Assembly (NCBI GenBank): GCA_951406725.2
Contig: OX597828.1
Span: 57,846,001 to 57,910,000, forward strand
DNA length: 64,000 nt
Origin: Octopus vulgaris
Lineage: Eukaryota
Direction: 5' to 3'
Of the stretch, positions 4,474 through 64,000 are shown one piece after another. Every line of letters begins with the position of its first letter. Positions within the stretch are counted from its first letter, which is position 1. The translations under genes were made by a program, and so were the position numbers. The notes under the pieces were generated by a model. That model searched no databases. It worked only from the letters and a program-made list of their open reading frames with translations, and was not told the origin of the DNA.

Positions 4474-4900
4474 TATTTCTTTATTGCCCACAAGGGGCTA
4501 AATATAGAGGGGACAAACAAGGACAGACAAAGGGATTAAGTCGATTACATCGACCCCAGTGCGTAACTGGTACTTATTAAATCGACCCCGAACGGATGAA
4601 AGGCAAAGCCGACCTCGGCGGAATTTGAACTCAGAACGTAACGACAGACGAAATACTTATTTCTATTTCTTTATTACCCACGAGGGACTAAACACATAGG
4701 GGACAAACAAGGACAGGCAAAGGGATTAAGTCGATTACATCGACACCAGTACGTAACTGGTACTTAATTTATCGACCCCGAAAGGATGAAAGGCAAAGTC
4801 GACCTCGGCGGAATTTGAACTCAGAACGTAGCGGCAGACGAAATACCGGTAGGCATTTCGCCCGGCGTGCTAGCGTTTCTGCCAGCTCGCCGCCGCCCTT
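4474..4900 (-). mobile_element. SINE family 1 tandem dimer (full unit plus headless unit) with TSD
   Basis: TSD TCAGTATTA[C/T]ATA at 4461-4473 and 4901-4913; internal junction at ~4655. Confidence 0.85.
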
Positions 4901-16970: not shown

Positions 16971-17116
16971 GTAAGATAAGAATACAATCTAAAAAAATAA
17001 ATAATGAATGTATAAATAGAGTTCTCATCCTAATCGTTTAATATCGATGTGCAAAATCTCATCATATATTGCTCTCACAATATAGAATCACTTTACTTAC
17101 TGGTCTTACTATATAT

Positions 17117-17396
17117 ATTTATTTACTACCCACAAGGGGCTAAACATAGAGGGGACAAACAAGGACAGACAAAGGGATTAAGTCGATTACATAGACCCCA
17201 TTGCGAAGCTGGTACTTTATCTATTGACCCCGAAAGGATGAAAGGCAAAGTCGACCTCGGCGGAATTTGAACTCAGAACGTATCGACAGACGAAATACCC
17301 ATTTCTTTACTACCCACAAGGGGCTAAACATAGAAGGAACAAACAAGGACAGACAAAGGGATTAAGTCGATTATATCGACCCCAGTGCGTAACTGG
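17117..17396 (-). mobile_element. SINE family 1 dimer, 5'-truncated
   Basis: Same core and tail as 4474-4900, with the same internal junction at ~17298. Confidence 0.8.
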
Positions 17397-19395: not shown

Positions 19396-20436
19396 GTAAG
19401 CGATTTTCATCATGAAATGTTTTTAATTGTTTGAATTTTATAATACTGAGATTGATTTGGTTCTTTGTAGTCTAATCTCTATGATTTAATCTTGCTTACT
19501 TCTAAATGTAATTGTATCAGGATATTATTAAACACCAAAAACGTTTCAAACACAAATATTAAATATTTGCAACGCGCATGTTTTGTGTGGTTAATTGTGT
19601 GAATGTGCCTCAAACAAATATCTCCTTGTGGCATTTATTTAAATACTTGTTGAATAAACTCTGGCCTCGCCCGTCAATTGTAATAGCTGACTTTTCACAC
19701 AGCAGATAACCTCTGAATAACAGGAAAATAGTTTTCATGTATGCTTGAATGCATATATAGAAGATCATTAGATTTTATCTTCCAAAATCTTCCAAATTTC
19801 TCACCAATAGAGAAAGGTCTGTTTTCCAGCCTTGAAGCGGTTTCTTTCGTTCAAATTTACATAACAACTAGATGGTGAAGAAAACATGTATGGATGTGCA
19901 TATGTTTGTATGTATCTGGACATGGATGTAAGTATATAAGATGTTTTATATATATGTGGGTTCTCTATGGTTTGAGCATGGTAGTGTTCAAAAACATATG
20001 CATGCATGCTTGCTTGTGTGCGTTTATACACTTATTATCTGCTTATACACACCGCGTTTGTTTACACTTATCGTATGGATAAATGCACTTACTACAAATT
20101 ACATATCTGAAATTACATATGCTTGCAACTATTATTTCTTAATTAGCCAGTTTCTGATGATTAGGGTAGAAGCAATCAGCTACATATCCAAACGTCGCAA
20201 TAATTCCAAGTCTAAGTCTAAAAATATAATCCAAATTGTATACTTGTAGACTTTTATTTTAGATTGACAAAAGTAAGTTTCATATAATTGCCAACCAAGT
20301 GTGGCATCCTATACTGGACAGTGCTACTGACGTTTATAGAAAGACATCTCTTCCAGCTGGCTAACGACACACATTCTGTGTCTGATTAGTATTTGCAAGG
20401 GGAGGTCATTACTCTCATCTCCAGCCTTACGTGATA

Positions 20437-20483
20437 CACATGGCCTCGAGTTCCTGGGTGGTAACCCGTTCTCAGCTTGTGTT
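20437..20483 (-). ncRNA. Degenerate copy of the type I HHR
   Basis: Reverse complement acacaag-CTGAGAA-c-gggt(tacc)accc-a-GGAA-ctcgag-GC-catgtgt has three core substitutions relative to 20774-20820. Confidence 0.65.
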
Positions 20484-20773
20484 AATCACCAGCTAGTGCT
20501 GAAAACTCACCCCACTCGTAAAAGGCTATATGCTTTTTCCAGCGACGAAACGTCGCTGAACTCGTAAAAGGAGAAATAAGCTATATTAAATCTCTGAGCG
20601 AGATGTATACAGTAGCAATACGGAATCGTAACATATAATTGCCAACCAAGTGTGGCGTCCTATACAGGACAGTGCTACTGTCGTTTAGAGACCCAGGAAG
20701 ACATATCTTCCAGCTGGAAAAAGCATTTAGTATTTTGCGAGTGGGGTGAATTTTCAGCAGTAGCTGGTGATTA

Positions 20774-20820
20774 ACACACGCTGAGGACGGGTACCCACCC
20801 AGAAACTCGAGTCCATGTGT
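20774..20820 (+). ncRNA. Type I hammerhead ribozyme, intact core
   Basis: acacacg-CTGAGGA-c-gggt(accc)accc-a-GAAA-ctcgag-TC-catgtgt. GUC site after 20813, palindromic stem III, stem I extends through gtgat/atcac. Confidence 0.85.
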
Positions 20821-21284
20821 ATCACGTAAGGCTAGTGGTGGGAGCGATGACCTACCCTCTCAAATACTAATCGGACACAGAATGTGTGTAGTTAGCCAGC
20901 TGGAAGGGATGTCTTCCTGGGGCTATAAATTTCAGTAGCACTGTCTTGTATAGGACGCCACACTTAGTTGGCGATTATATGTTACGATTCCGTATTGCAA
21001 CTGTTTACATCTCGCTCAGAGATTTAATGTAGCTAAAAGTAAGTTTCCTCACTAATCTAATATTTACTAAATTTGGAGAGTCATGCTGAAAGGTTACTTT
21101 CCCAGCGTAGCGAATCATTTTAATGAAGGAGATCAAAACAATATATCGATTCTGGACCTTAAGAGATTATCAACATTCATGAGAGAATACTTTCTGAGGG
21201 ATCCTCGTATAATTTGCCGCTTGCATGCAAACGAAGATTTTGCTCTTCAATAATAGTGGGATTTCTCAATGTCGTCGAATGGAT

Positions 21285-22604: not shown

Positions 22605-23275
22605 GACGGAATCGTCAGCACGCCGGGCGAAATGCTTAGCGATATTTTATTCGTCTTGTAAGGCGGCGAGCTGGCAGAAACGTTAGCGCGCCGGGCGAAA
22701 TGCGTAGCCGTATTTCGTCTGCCGTTACGTTCTGAGTTCAAATTCCGCCGAGGTCGACTTTGCCTTTCATCCTTTCGGGGTCGATAAATTAAGTACGATT
22801 TACGCACTAGGGTCGATGTAATCGACTTACTCCCTTTGTCTGTCCTTGTTTGTTGCCTCTATATTTAGCCCCTTGTGGGTAATAAAGAAACGGATATTTT
22901 ATTCGTCTTTACTTCTGATTTCAAATTCCGCCGAATTTGACTCTCCTTTCATTCTTTCAGGGTCGATAAATTAAGTACTAATGGAACACTGGGATCGATG
23001 TAATCGACTAGTGCCCTCCCTTAAAATTTCAGGCCTTGTGCCTTTAGTAGAAAAGATTATTATCATCACATGTTGGCGCAATCGTTAGCACACCGGCTGA
23101 AATGCCTTAGCGGTAGCTTGTCCGTCTTTATGTTCTGAGTTCAAATTCCGCCTACGTCGACTTTGCCTTTCATCTTTTCGGAGTCGTTAAGATAAGTACC
23201 ATTTGAGCACTGGAGTTGTTGTAATCGACTTACTTCTTATCTGAAATTGCTGGCCTTGTGTGTAAATTTGAAACC
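22605..23275 (+). mobile_element. Nested and tandem SINE family 1 cluster
   Basis: A young copy at ~22659-22890 sits inside an older copy with TSD GATATTTTATTCGTCTT (22641 and 22893). A further diverged copy lies at ~23070-23275. Confidence 0.82.
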
Positions 23276-24234: not shown

Positions 24235-26250
24235 TCCTGAACGACTAGTGACTGTTAAGTTCAAATATATTCTAAGAGCTACAACAACAGTTAGAAAGGT
24301 TTCGGCAGTTTCTGCCTTATGAGATGAAAGTGCCCGTTGATATTGGACGAAACATGACCTGAACTTAAAAAAGACTAAAAAGTACTACAATTATTTATGC
24401 TATGAAAATTTTACTAAACACACTTGCGAAAGCGGTGATGGGTTTCTCAGCTTCGGTTCTTATCTCTGCATCAGATAAACTGTATAACTTCACAATAACT
24501 TTGAATTTTCCGTGCACCGATTAATATGCTACCCTGGGTTTTTTGCAAGGTGACAAACAAATGATCTAAAATGACATCAAAAGTCTCGCACCTAATTTTT
24601 TCTCCTACAAAAGGGACAGCATACTCCGAAGTTGTCACTAGAGGGGCATCAAAGTTTTGTTTTCCCTTAGTCGATCTATCGTTGCTTCATAGACTATGTT
24701 TCCACACATGTTCCTGGCATCCAGTTTCAACTCTTCATACTCTTCATACTTATCCCGATGTGACTTCAGAATTTTTCCCACCGAATCAATTAGATCTGTC
24801 ACTTTATTCAGATGAACTTCAACACCTTGAAAAGAATTGTTTTTACTGTTAATCCTTCAAGAATTAAATTCCCGCCAGATCTTAGTCATTAGCGCAGTTT
24901 CAGGACAGTCCATTTTGTCTACCAATGACTTCAATTTTTTGCTTCAGTTGTTTGTTCTAAATCATATTCAATATCTCCAAGTGCATTTTAAATGCAGATA
25001 TAATCGATCTACGATGGTCTAAGTAGCGCATGCTCTTGCTGACCAACGAGTTTCTGACAACGACTTCAAAGTCAGTTCTCTTTTATTTTCTTCCAAAGAT
25101 TTCATTGATTTTTTCTCTCTGTCTTTCAACGCAGAAAAGAAGTGTATACCTTTGGTATGAAGCCAATATAGCTTCGACATACCATGAAGCATTAGCGTCT
25201 CATACAAGATTCAATGAACGAGTAGCACTGGTAAAGAAAACTGTAACCAAGTTCTTTTCCTTAAGTCTGGCTTGCATTTCTGTGTCGTGATCAGACATAT
25301 TACTAGTGTTATCGTAGGACTGACCTTTGCAGTCTTCAAAATTTATACCCGATTTATTTAGGAAATCTTAACACAGATGTAGCCAGTGTTTCCACTTTGT
25401 GAAACCAGTCTGCAGAAAAGTTAAAAGCCTTTCTATCGGCTTCCCAGGAACAATATAATGCACAGTAACTGTTAGCTGATAAACTTCGGCGCGGTCTGGT
25501 CTGGTATTAGATACTTCGCAGTTTTAAGTTTTGATACAATATGATCCCCATATCTTAAATATAACACAGCCATGTTTTCGTTGGTGGTAATTATAAGTAC
25601 GACAGCTGACGACTTCCGAAATTGCCGAATACTTTCAAGTGACCCATTAGAAATGGATCAAAGTGTGCAATAAATTCCATAATTGCACAAAAGCTCTCAT
25701 TTTACATAGATCTATGATTTCTTCACTCATCTTAAATGCCAGATTTCTATCGGCTAGAATTATTGTATACGGCCACAACACAGCTCAATACCTCAGCACA
25801 GTATTTCGTGTTTCTCTGTACTGTTTTCCTACTTGTTATTAATATGAAAACAATCCCCGCATAGAAGAAGATTAAACAGCAACATAGACCTCTGTGTTTT
25901 CATTTTCTCCCCTGCGTTTTTTCTAATCATTAAATCCCATCCTTGTTGGAAAACCTTCCAGGGTAGCTTGACATCAAAGTAGAGTAAAATCAATTAACTG
26001 CACTCCTTGGTGGGCTGTACAAGATCCACTTTGTCAAACACTGCCCATCATTGTCACAAACAGTACAAAATTGAATTTTTAAAATAATGAGTGCTCACCA
26101 TTTTTTTTTTTATATTGGCGTCAATATTCAGTATTCTGAAAAAAACAGGGACACTTTTTTTCTGGACGGAAACTATCTGGTTCGGTGTAGATCCGAAGAT
26201 AACACTTTGCTATCCATATCAGTAGAATGCGGTGATCCTTCGTTTTCAAT
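24235..26250 (-). pseudogene. Degenerate hAT (ZMYM1-like) transposase
   Basis: Minus-strand fragments DCKGQSYDNTSNMS, QLTVTVHYIV, LKSLSETRWSAR, and the hATC-like TVVVALRIYLNLTVTSRSG*R. Confidence 0.8.
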
Positions 26251-32584: not shown

Positions 32585-32868
32585 ACTACTTGTTACAGTG
32601 ACAAACTTCGTTAAAATAAAAGCTATTACTTATATAATAATCTTAGAAAAACTGAATGCGACGAACCTTTTGGAAGCAAGTTCTTGTATAGTGTGTATAA
32701 GAACTTAAAAATTTTAAGACCGAAGTCCTTACACTCACAATACAAAAACTCCCTACCAAAATGTTTGTACTATTCTGTTTTTATTTTCAAAATTTACATC
32801 GTTAACTTAATTTAAACGAATCATTCTTCACACACACTCACACTTATGTATGTGTGTATATATATATA

Positions 32869-33383
32869 TAAACAACTTATAAATAAGGGCAGACGAAAAT
32901 ATTTCTAATGCCAAATATGCCGAAATTAGACACCCTGTCCATAACCATATTATTTTTTCACAATACGCACGCTACTTAAAAAAGGTTGACAGAAACTTCT
33001 AAAAAATTCCATTATTACCACATCGGACCGATTACAGGGTTAGTTCATCAGAACCCCCCCCCTTCGTCAGTGATAAATGTGGCAAAGAAATAAATGAAAT
33101 ACCTACTCGTACCCATGGAAGAAGTAAACACTAAGTCATGAGCACAATTAAGTACCCCAAATACATCCAAAATAGAAGTTCACTGACAAAGGGAGGGTTC
33201 TGATGAACTAACCCTGAAATCGGTCCGATATGGTAATAATGGAATGGTTTAGAAATTTCTGTCGACCTTTTTTGAGTAGCGTGCATATTGTGAAAAAATT
33301 ATATGGTTATGGACAGGGTGTCTAATTTCGGCATATTTGGCATCAGAAATTTTTTCGTTTGCCCTTATTTATAAGTTGTTTAT
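32869..33383. mobile_element. Inverted pair of ~200-bp Penelope pLTR-like arms, each with an HHR motif
   Basis: Arms 32869-33072 and 33180-33383, spacer ~107 bp. Inferred consensus CTGACGA-aggg...ccct-GAAA-tcgg-TC. Confidence 0.75.
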
Positions 33384-33503
33384 AATTTTAACCTTTAAAG
33401 GTATTTTTTAATATGCTGATCATTAATAAAATTTTTTATAGAAAAAAATTTTATCCAAGATTAAATATAAATAAAAAAAAAAGTATATATATATATTAAT
33501 AGT

Positions 33504-33727
33504 TATTGCCAAGCTAATATGGCAGTCCAGAAATATAGGACGAATGCTGCCGTTGATTAGTTCCAAGAGGCCATCGCCGATAGCTAGCTATGTGACACAC
33601 GAACCTGTGTCCATTATAACCTTCGAACAGGGGAGGTCGGCCGCTTCACCTTGCTGGTCAGGCATCTGCAGACTAGTTTCAGGGTATTTGTCCCTTATCA
33701 ATGTAGAGTAGCCGAACCCAGCAGGTT
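33504..33727 (-). mobile_element. Second retrozyme-like family fragment (degenerate HHR plus shared structured domain)
   Basis: Reverse complement tctaca-TTGATAA-ggg(acaaata)ccc-t-GAAA-ctag-TC-tgcaga at 33665-33707. Downstream motifs are collinear with 20850-20975. Confidence 0.7.

Positions 33728-38586: not shown

Positions 38587-38651
<65 letters not shown>
38140..38651 (+). mobile_element. Dong/R4-clade LINE 3' fragment (REL endonuclease) ending in (AAT)n
   Basis: VIIKDCKKYTSFLIDIAVPSDWNISPKEVKKLSK*K..MWSMEVKTIPVITRGLGMIKK..QKIALLETAYILQK. Confidence 0.8.
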
Positions 38652-38652
<1 letters not shown>

Positions 38653-38865
38653 CTTTTCTACTATAGTCAAAAGGCCTGGAATTTGGGGTAAGGGGACTAG
38701 TCGATTGCATCGGCACCAGTGTATCACTGGTACTTAATTTATCGACCCCGAAAGAATGAAAGGTAAATTCGACCTCTGCGGAATTTGAACTCAGAACGTA
38801 GCGACGGGCGAAATACCGCTAAGCATTTCGTCCAGCGTGCAAATGATTCTACCAGCTCACAGACT
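38652..38865 (-). mobile_element. SINE family 1 variant
   Basis: Core ACTGGTACTTAATTTATCGACCCCGAAAG and GAATTTGAACTCAGAACG. Confidence 0.8.
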
Positions 38866-38885
38866 TATATAATAATAATAATAAA

Positions 38886-42438: not shown

Positions 42439-42552
42439 ATTATATAGAAGGAGCTTCTACAGGACTAGAACTGTTTCATTCAAGAGAAATCTTCAGGAAG
42501 ATTTCTCTTGAATGAAACAGTTCTAGTCCTGTAGAAGCTCCTTCTATATAAT
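42439..42552. repeat. Perfect ~56-bp-arm palindrome (2-nt loop), probably an inverted pLTR-like fragment
   Basis: ...AGAGAAATCTTC-AG-GAAGATTTCTCT.... The minus strand reads CTGAAGA-tttctcttgaat-GAAAC. Confidence 0.8.
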
Positions 42553-50058: not shown

Positions 50059-50285
50059 AGGCGGCGAGCTAGCAGAAACGTTAGCACGCCGGGCGAAATG
50101 CGTAGCCATATTTCGTCTGTCTTTACGTTCTGAGTTCAAATTCCGCCGAGGTAGACTTTGCATTTCATCCTTTCGGGGTCGATAAATTAAGTACCAGTTG
50201 CGTACTGGAGACGATCTAATCGACTGGCTCTCTCCCCAAAACTTTCGGGCCTTGTGACTTGAGTAGAAAAGAATAGAAAAGAATA
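50059..50285 (+). mobile_element. SINE family 1 variant, full length
   Basis: Head, B-box and core as above, with an AGAAAAGAAT tandem tail. Confidence 0.85.
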
Positions 50286-57607: not shown

Positions 57608-57764
57608 ATCGACCCCAGTGCGTAGCTGGTACTTAATTTAACGACCCCGAAAGGATAAAAGGCAAAGTCGACCACGGCGGAATTTGACCTCAGAACGTAA
57701 CGGCAGACGAAATATGGCTACGCATTTCGTCCGGCGTGCTAACGTTTCTGCCAGCTCGCCGCCC
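57608..57764 (-). mobile_element. SINE family 1, tailless copy with TSD
   Basis: TSD TCACTAAGGAA at 57597-57607 and 57765-57775. Confidence 0.85.
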
Positions 57765-62547: not shown

Positions 62548-63047
62548 TACAGGCTTCTTTTCAGTTTCCCTCTACGAAATCCAACCACAATTCTTTGGTC
62601 GGCTCGTGGCTATAGTAGAAAACATTTGCCCAATGTGCTACTCAATGCAACTGAACCCGGAACTATGAGATTGCGAAGCAAACTTCTTACCACACAGCCA
62701 CACGCCTTTATACATACATATACTGTTACATTATTTACTATTGTGTGACAATCCATTTATATAAATAAATTGTTAAATGGAAAGGATACAGCATAGCATT
62801 ACATGTATTACTAACCATACGTAACTCTTTCCCCGAGTAATCAGTTGCGTTTAAGGTTGTTCCTTCGTCTGAATATTTGTAGATAGTAAGTTCATTATAT
62901 AGTTATCTGCAGCCATATTCAGCATAGTCCTATACATTTGAATATGGAAAAACAAAACGCTGCACAAGTTGTCTTTAGAGAAGAAATTATCCTTATAGAT
63001 CATATAGATATAAACACACCACTAGGATATAAACGACATCACCGGAT

Positions 63048-63092
63048 CGTAGGACGTATACATTTCTGCGTCGTTGCACTTCATCAGTTACG
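63048..63092 (-). ncRNA. Type I HHR motif
   Basis: Reverse complement cgtaa-CTGATGA-ag-tgc(aacgac)gca-GAAA-tgtatacg-TC-ctacg; near-palindromic stem III; GUC site. Confidence 0.65.
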
Positions 63093-63772: not shown

Positions 63773-64000
63773 ATTTCTTTACTACCCACAAGGGGCAAAA
63801 CACAGAGGGGACAAACAAGGACAGATAAACGGATTAAGTCGATTACATCGACCCCAGTGCGTAACTGGTACTTAATTTATCGACCCCGAAAGGATGAAAG
63901 GCAAAGTCGACCTTGGCGGAATTTGAACTCAGAACGTAATGGCAGACGAAATACGGCTACGCATTTCACCCGGCATGCTAACGTTTCTGCCAGCTCGCCG
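63773..64000 (-). mobile_element. SINE family 1 copy running off the window end
   Basis: Homologous to 4660-4895. Confidence 0.85.

Follow-up and report, generated by a model that had tools for sequence, protein, structure and literature searches.

A covarying RNA domain downstream of type I hammerheads in octopus repeat units and its possible role as a signal for a Penelope-like reverse transcriptase

Two sites in a stretch of 64,000 nucleotides of Octopus vulgaris DNA (contig OX597828.1; hereafter the window) raise the question of which fold, and which function, could be shared by two repeat elements that differ in their hammerhead stems. An earlier note on this DNA had listed a series of ordered motifs on opposite strands of the two sites and had proposed that they form a functional RNA. 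All of the named motifs were found in this order, at 33611-33508 (-) in an element of a family here designated A and at 20874-20972 (+) in an element of family B, and local alignment of the two domains gave a score of 63, which was equalled by none of 2000 dinucleotide shuffles (mean 18.3, maximum 35). Upstream of each domain lies a type I hammerhead, at 33701-33671 (-) for A and 20781-20813 (+) for B, and the distance from the predicted cut to the start of the first hairpin is 60 nt in A and 61 nt in B, in line with the claim that the domain keeps its position 3' of the cleavage site.

Both sites are decayed copies of dispersed, non-coding repeat units of ~350 nt with a type I hammerhead. The 5'-truncated A copy (33493-33725, minus strand) covers unit positions 74-306 of 358 and is 96% identical to the family consensus. 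Its hammerhead (33671-33701) has the U3-A8 core variant of family A and a palindromic CUAG stem III, with predicted cleavage after 33671, and is followed by the 3' arm of an extended stem I (33613-33670) that includes the GACCTCCCC motif and has a 5' partner partly missing from this copy. Further along the minus strand come the hairpin P1 (33594-33611, 6 bp), P2 (33558-33590; a 5-bp stem, an AGCU/UGG internal loop, a 6-bp stem and a GAUG loop), the 5' strand of helix P5 (33546-33552), the hairpin P3 (33525-33541) and the hairpin P4 (33508-33523; 4 bp, 8-nt loop). Three changes in P2 are specific to this copy, one of them G>A at 33561. The copy stops just before (TA)n at a position termed end 1, and lacks the tail that holds the 3' partner of P5. 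The B copy (20713-21034, plus strand) covers unit positions 27-348 of 348 at 94% identity to its consensus, and no long ORF was found at this site. Its hammerhead (20781-20813) has a C3-G8 core and a palindromic CUCGAG stem III, and the domain consists of P1 (20874-20890), P2 (20893-20925), the P5 5' strand (20933-20939), P3 (20943-20956) and P4 (20957-20972). The downstream part (20973-21034) holds a small stem-loop near end 1, the tail with the P5 3' strand (20997-21003), the P6 hairpin (21010-21022) and a second terminus, end 2, at which the copy stops. An inverted partial B copy (20579-20717, minus strand) is joined at the CCAGCTGG palindrome of P2, and a second inverted B copy (20281-20543, minus strand) stops at end 1.

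In the assembly of this genome (2.8 Gb, 227 contigs) the first searches returned 2839 candidates for A and 3050 for B, which are not copy numbers (40 of each were scored). Five further families with the domain (D, E, I, G and F) were exposed by profile searches in the flanks of fetched loci, a route by which family discovery is incomplete, so that the total of seven is to be read as at least seven; their candidates numbered 2543, 2081, 2650, 364 and 1640, respectively, with possible overlap between related families. The consensus units are about 346-365 nt long and 49-88% identical in pairs (A/B 57%, B/D 74%, F/I 88%), and homology between families extends along the whole unit. Copies occur as head-to-tail units (spaced 363 nt in tandem copies of family E) and as solo truncated copies, with inverted pieces. 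The hammerhead core is present in all seven consensuses, that of family F with a weak stem II, and an extra base before stem II together with a palindromic stem III was recovered by script in six, the longer palindrome of family G being clipped by the pattern. Further relatives were seen at L120:1785-1879 (-), designated H; at L074:890-980 (+), an E-like element in which P3 is present (E2); and at L005:2536-2690, a D subfamily with an AGTG loop. Words of family E occur in sequencing runs under four organism labels. Scans of viral and metagenome contigs with the P2 pattern yielded no homologue beyond close kin of this genome: there was no stretch in the viral contigs, and the 76 in metagenome contigs were treated as chance (four with a 4-bp inner stem; best profile E-value 0.024, none good).

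When each of the seven consensuses was folded singly, one architecture was obtained. The 5' part of the unit forms a hairpin P0 (6-7 bp) and then the extended stem I of 44-51 pairs, with the hammerhead at its tip; P1 and P2 follow, and P5 closes a multiloop holding the optional P3, P4 and a weak small stem-loop, after which comes P6. The domain does not stand alone: it makes up the 3' half of an architecture that spans the whole unit and that the families share by common descent. Domain folding z-scores ranged from -2.7 to -5.6 (100 shuffles each), and in circular folds of the seven families six of the seven named helices had mean pair probabilities of 0.61-1.0. The remaining helix, P4, reached 0.86-1.0 except in family G, where its pair probability was 0.01 and its assignment is doubtful. 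A covarying pseudoknot was unsupported, loop-loop complementarity being 5.0 within versus 4.7 across families in one comparison and 3.7 versus 3.3 in the other.

Several details of the fold as first proposed had to be revised. The GACCT(C/A)CC motif, listed as the start of the domain, belongs to the 3' arm and bulge of the extended stem I, and only its (U)CCCY part is common to the families; GACCTCCC is likewise part of this long hammerhead stem I. The pairing of TAG-CYA with TGG-RR-CTA around a 2-purine bulge came out 6.5-6.7 kcal/mol less stable than an uninterrupted UAGCY/RGCUA stem with a 4x3 internal loop, AGCU/UGG (A, -15.8 versus -9.1 kcal/mol; B, -14.9 versus -8.4 kcal/mol for the 5-bp-stem and bulge models, respectively), and the consensus P2 accordingly has 5 bp, the AGCU/UGG loop, 6 bp and a short loop. 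This last loop, held to be an invariant GATG, reads GAT, GGCG or GTCGAT in other families. G(T/C)AGCA does exist as a motif and is reassigned here as the 5' strand of the 7-bp helix P5, whose partner lies downstream. The GTCC/GGAC hairpin (P3) holds at the two window sites and is not universal, being absent in families E and F. Across the internal loop of P2 runs a palindromic 8-mer, CYAGCURG (20896-20903 in the window), in six of the seven families (A, B, D, F, G and I; absent in E), which in A is preserved through a double change; several inversions in copies are joined at this palindrome (window 20713-20717, L005, L038).

The families differ enough for covariation to be counted. Over 39 pairs in seven consensuses, 266 of 273 cells were paired, against a mean of 237 and a maximum of 248 in 5000 partner shuffles; the helix positions were placed with patterns written after the folds had been seen, and the strand chosen as the P5 partner was the most complementary one; these counts therefore lean towards structure. 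Both sides had changed at 21 of the 39 pairs (19 without the doubtful P4 of family G), four of the 19 being in CpG context, and the nine paired positions at which A and B differ are all double changes. Between families, double changes made up 162 of 214 differing family-pair cells, which are not independent events; pairing is kept in 178 of the 214, and in the other 36 a pair is broken. To gauge neutral change, 240 genomic copies were compared with their own consensus, and among 697 changed pairs 441 were broken and 23 were double changes. Unguided RNAalifold, applied to 20 copies aligned with MAFFT, recovered just P5 and P1, in which 9 of 11 pairs showed double changes. With P4 added to P5 and P1, 91% of the cells in this alignment were paired, a value equalled by none of 500 shuffles and contrasting with 23-49% in slid registers; P2 was left out of this count, families E, F and I being out of register there. 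Since double changes are common between families and rare (23 of 697) in decaying copies, neutral divergence of a single family, which the earlier note had named as the explanation that would undo its proposal, is unlikely. Selection on RNA structure is well supported, and the functional, conserved fold proposed from two sites is borne out by strong covariation in the deeper seven-family alignment.

The domain was also compared with known RNAs and element classes. The Rfam scan of the window returned only microsatellite-driven miRNA matches, and at the two sites nothing near a gathering score (best E-value 0.33), the HDV-like, twister and pistol ribozymes included, in scans that also missed the hammerheads and thus were of limited sensitivity. 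No tRNA-derived SINE head was found either (ARAGORN, 0 genes in the window; no tRNA match in the Rfam scans); the earlier note had judged by eye that the domain matches neither tRNA nor HDV-like, twister or pistol consensus. Each unit has a type I hammerhead, falls within 150-450 nt, is arranged head to tail and has no coding frame of its own, features that at the sequence level agree with a non-LTR retrozyme, and the element would work like a passenger with the pseudo-LTR (pLTR) of Penelope-like elements (PLEs); the class is already known, and the families may already be in Dfam or Repbase, for example as Unknown or Penelope. Animal non-LTR retrozymes (PMC7229834; bioRxiv 10.64898/2026.07.22.740005) share the type I hammerhead, 150-450-nt non-coding units, head-to-tail copies and co-occurring PLEs, and the units of mussels, at 350-390 nt, come close in size to those described here. 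Unlike these, the octopus copies are often solo, truncated or inverted and have two defined 3' ends, and in the available parts of these accounts, whose retrozymes are compared here with units known from genomic sequence alone, no covarying domain common to families is described. We found no description of such a domain in the literature searched, nor in passages of a cephalopod repeat survey (PMC8967140). PLE minimal hammerheads (PMC4209133) share the extra nucleotide between 9 and 10.1, the palindromic stem III and the U3-A8 variant; unlike them, the core here sits at the tip of the extended stem I.

The 3' ends of the copies connect the fold to PLE mobilisation. In a sample of 276 copy ends, biased because copies were chosen by similarity to queries with particular endpoints, 55 were at end 1, 120 at end 2 and 24 elsewhere, and 77 ran on into the next unit. 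End 1 lies between P4 and the P5 3' strand, with 48 of the 55 falling 12-19 nt after P4, and end 2 lies after P6, although BLAST-defined ends blur in AT-rich flanks. The two are 45-55 nt apart in families A, B, D and E and flank the P5 partner strand. (TA)4 was present in 76 of 175 end flanks compared with 331 of 5000 28-mers drawn at random from these loci. Inverted truncated copies and an optional tail are part of standard PLE anatomy (PMC8557442), and the families have 5'-truncated copies in inverted orientation, partial tandems, targets that are AT-rich or microsatellite, and an optional tail delimited by the two 3' ends; two ends, (TA)n adjacency and tandem plus inverted pieces constitute the PLE tail signature. 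A third hammerhead repeat family, C (2159 candidates), lies in the window at 33180-33460 (+), with an inverted piece at 32867-33073, tail to tail with the A copy, and has a GACA/TGTC hairpin. Family C, too, stops at two 3' sites, which are separated by about 73 nt, and has (TA)n flanks, and the domain model did not match it.

Candidate partners were sought among the autonomous PLEs of the genome, which comprise at least two groups with RT, Cys linker and GIY-YIG (with open frames 781 aa and >1000 aa in length) and also terminate at (TA)n; judged by the linker alone, they may be of the Neptune/Nematis type. The domain model gave no match to their own pLTRs in 38 + 40 + 10 loci, 88 in all and a small sample from thousands of candidates, and the significant matches at PLE loci were neighbouring copies of families A, B or D. 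The GIY-YIG loci and a second PLE RT family have their own hammerheads and no domain match, and two ends occur in the 781-aa PLE, which lacks P1 and P2. Since both this element and family C have two ends without the domain, the domain is not a general requirement for a tail. In the 781-aa PLE (L227:about 845-960, L230) a segment after the hammerhead containing GCAGCATT appears by eye to be complementary to a segment spanning the start codon of an upstream ORF, possibly an analogue of P5. PLE protein matches occurred in 5 of 143 family loci, in flanking DNA only. Fragments of PLEs adjoining copies of E or F (L141, L146, L276) were considered as partners and look like independent neighbours. At L297:1033-1815 (-), a locus identical with L020, 316 nt of a PLE RT run directly and in the same orientation into a family A array; the junction lies inside P2, and the PLE sequence does not resume beyond it. 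It is one case in 143 loci, possibly a template-switch chimera or an insertion with deletion.

We infer, as the somewhat probable explanation, that the domain is a binding and start-site signal for a Penelope-like RT borrowed in trans, and that the units are non-autonomous, retrozyme-like PLE passengers. The fold is likely a grip and start handle for the RT because paired changes keep the fold and the copies mostly stop at two fixed points; among the functions offered earlier, RT recognition thus fits best, the element ends mapping to fixed points of the fold, and promoter or new catalytic or ligation roles found no support here. By analogy with published PLE and retrozyme work, tandem units would be transcribed, the hammerheads would cut, probably as dimers via the palindromic stem III, and the monomers may become circular; a PLE RT-endonuclease would then bind P1-P2-P5 and nick AT-rich DNA. 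Two points would serve for starting the cDNA: end 1, which lies in the P5 multiloop 12-19 nt beyond P4, and end 2, immediately beyond P6. The stretch between them would be the PLE tail and the supplier of the P5 3' strand, so that the full fold would be out of reach for a solo copy that stops at end 1, as the one at 33493-33725 does.

The closest precedent is PAc of Anolis, where the PLE protein requires RNA just downstream of the hammerhead and begins cDNA synthesis at two internal positions, by which the genomic tail is defined, on AT-rich targets (PMC11167929). The likeness extends to a pLTR and tail in which a hammerhead is followed by an RNA segment with two end sites, and to partial-tandem and inverted copies. 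In PAc, however, this segment is the ORF start and the tail is 30-40 nt, whereas here the segment is non-coding, 45-55 nt separate the two ends, and a covarying helix pairs the tail with the domain. Chlamys/MRC1 elements (PMC8557442) are likewise non-autonomous PLE passengers with pLTRs and head-to-tail insertions; their 3' ends generally resemble autonomous families, in a clade without canonical hammerheads, whereas no autonomous match was found here. Against the reading as an RT signal stand several observations: the PLE loci examined gave no partner carrying the domain, family C and the 781-aa PLE have two ends without it, and the spacing of the ends is longer than the published tail of 30-40 nt. 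On how animal retrozymes are copied and which RNA feature a PLE RT recognises, the literature consulted offers co-occurrence, pLTR similarity and one in vitro deletion series. Here a covariation-backed structure and mapped 3' ends come from a genome that also has young long-frame PLEs, which makes the pairing directly testable.

The main rival, which we regard as unlikely though still to be weighed seriously, is that the fold serves the RNA itself during its lifetime and not the RT: it would stabilise the circular or linear monomer, bind a host protein (e.g., at the AGCU/UGG loop) or aid ligation, and the ends would be set by simpler AT-rich cues. In its favour are the abundance of animal retrozymes as circRNAs (PMC7229834), the structure throughout the unit, including P0 and the 44-51-pair stem I far from the ends, the good pairing of six of the seven helices in all seven circular folds (and of P4 except in G), and the lack of the domain in the autonomous PLE pLTRs examined. 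It sits less well with P5, which links the domain to the tail, and with the fixed distance of end 1 from P4 in families whose sequences differ by up to half.

PLE RTs form the sister group of telomerase RT. A bolder proposal, for which the chances are rather poor, is that these retrozymes have acquired by evolution an RNA module of their own for recruiting the RT, one that is lacking in the autonomous elements on which they are parasitic: the fold would be a template-positioning scaffold for a telomerase-related RT, as telomerase RNA is for TERT, with opening and closing of P5 picking the start site and the P2 palindrome CYAGCURG pairing two RNA molecules to suit an RT that acts as a dimer. 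If a fold that positions the template were defined, this would be relevant to the way in which the telomerase-related RT family reads RNA.

Very improbable is a reading of the conserved words as an internal promoter that acts at the DNA level, of the kind present in SINE heads; the sequence conservation of P1 and of the AGC-AGCT-GG words, and the need of non-autonomous units for transcription, speak for it, but the compensatory changes across helices point to RNA pairing and there is no tRNA-like head. Lower still ranks a second catalytic or ligation motif. The conserved internal loop and multiloop, and the lack of an Rfam family that accounts for the domain, are compatible with one, but no pseudoknot covaries, P3 is lost in two families, the loops vary, cleavage is already supplied by the hammerhead, and RtcB is far better than self-ligation for retrozyme circles (PMC7229834). 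Least probable, and largely refuted already, is that the similarity reflects common descent and neutral decay only, for although whole-unit homology, close kin among the families (F/I, B/D) and CpG decay, which can mimic compensation, would suit it, decaying copies mostly break the pairs that the families keep, and few double-change pairs are in CpG context.

Other repeats were observed in the window. A hammerhead-like motif at 42460-42530 (-) lies in a short inverted pair before (TA)n and also occurs in L107, L324 and L325, and a solo hammerhead-like motif lies at 63040-63090 (-). A SINE-like repeat of ~190-240 nt, which may be an octopus SINE, is present in many copies (4474-4894, 22660-22897, 17111-17298, 38649-38867, 50059-50275, 57608-57763 and 63774-64000). 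At 24369-25657 (-), broken frames resemble by eye a hAT-type DNA transposase.
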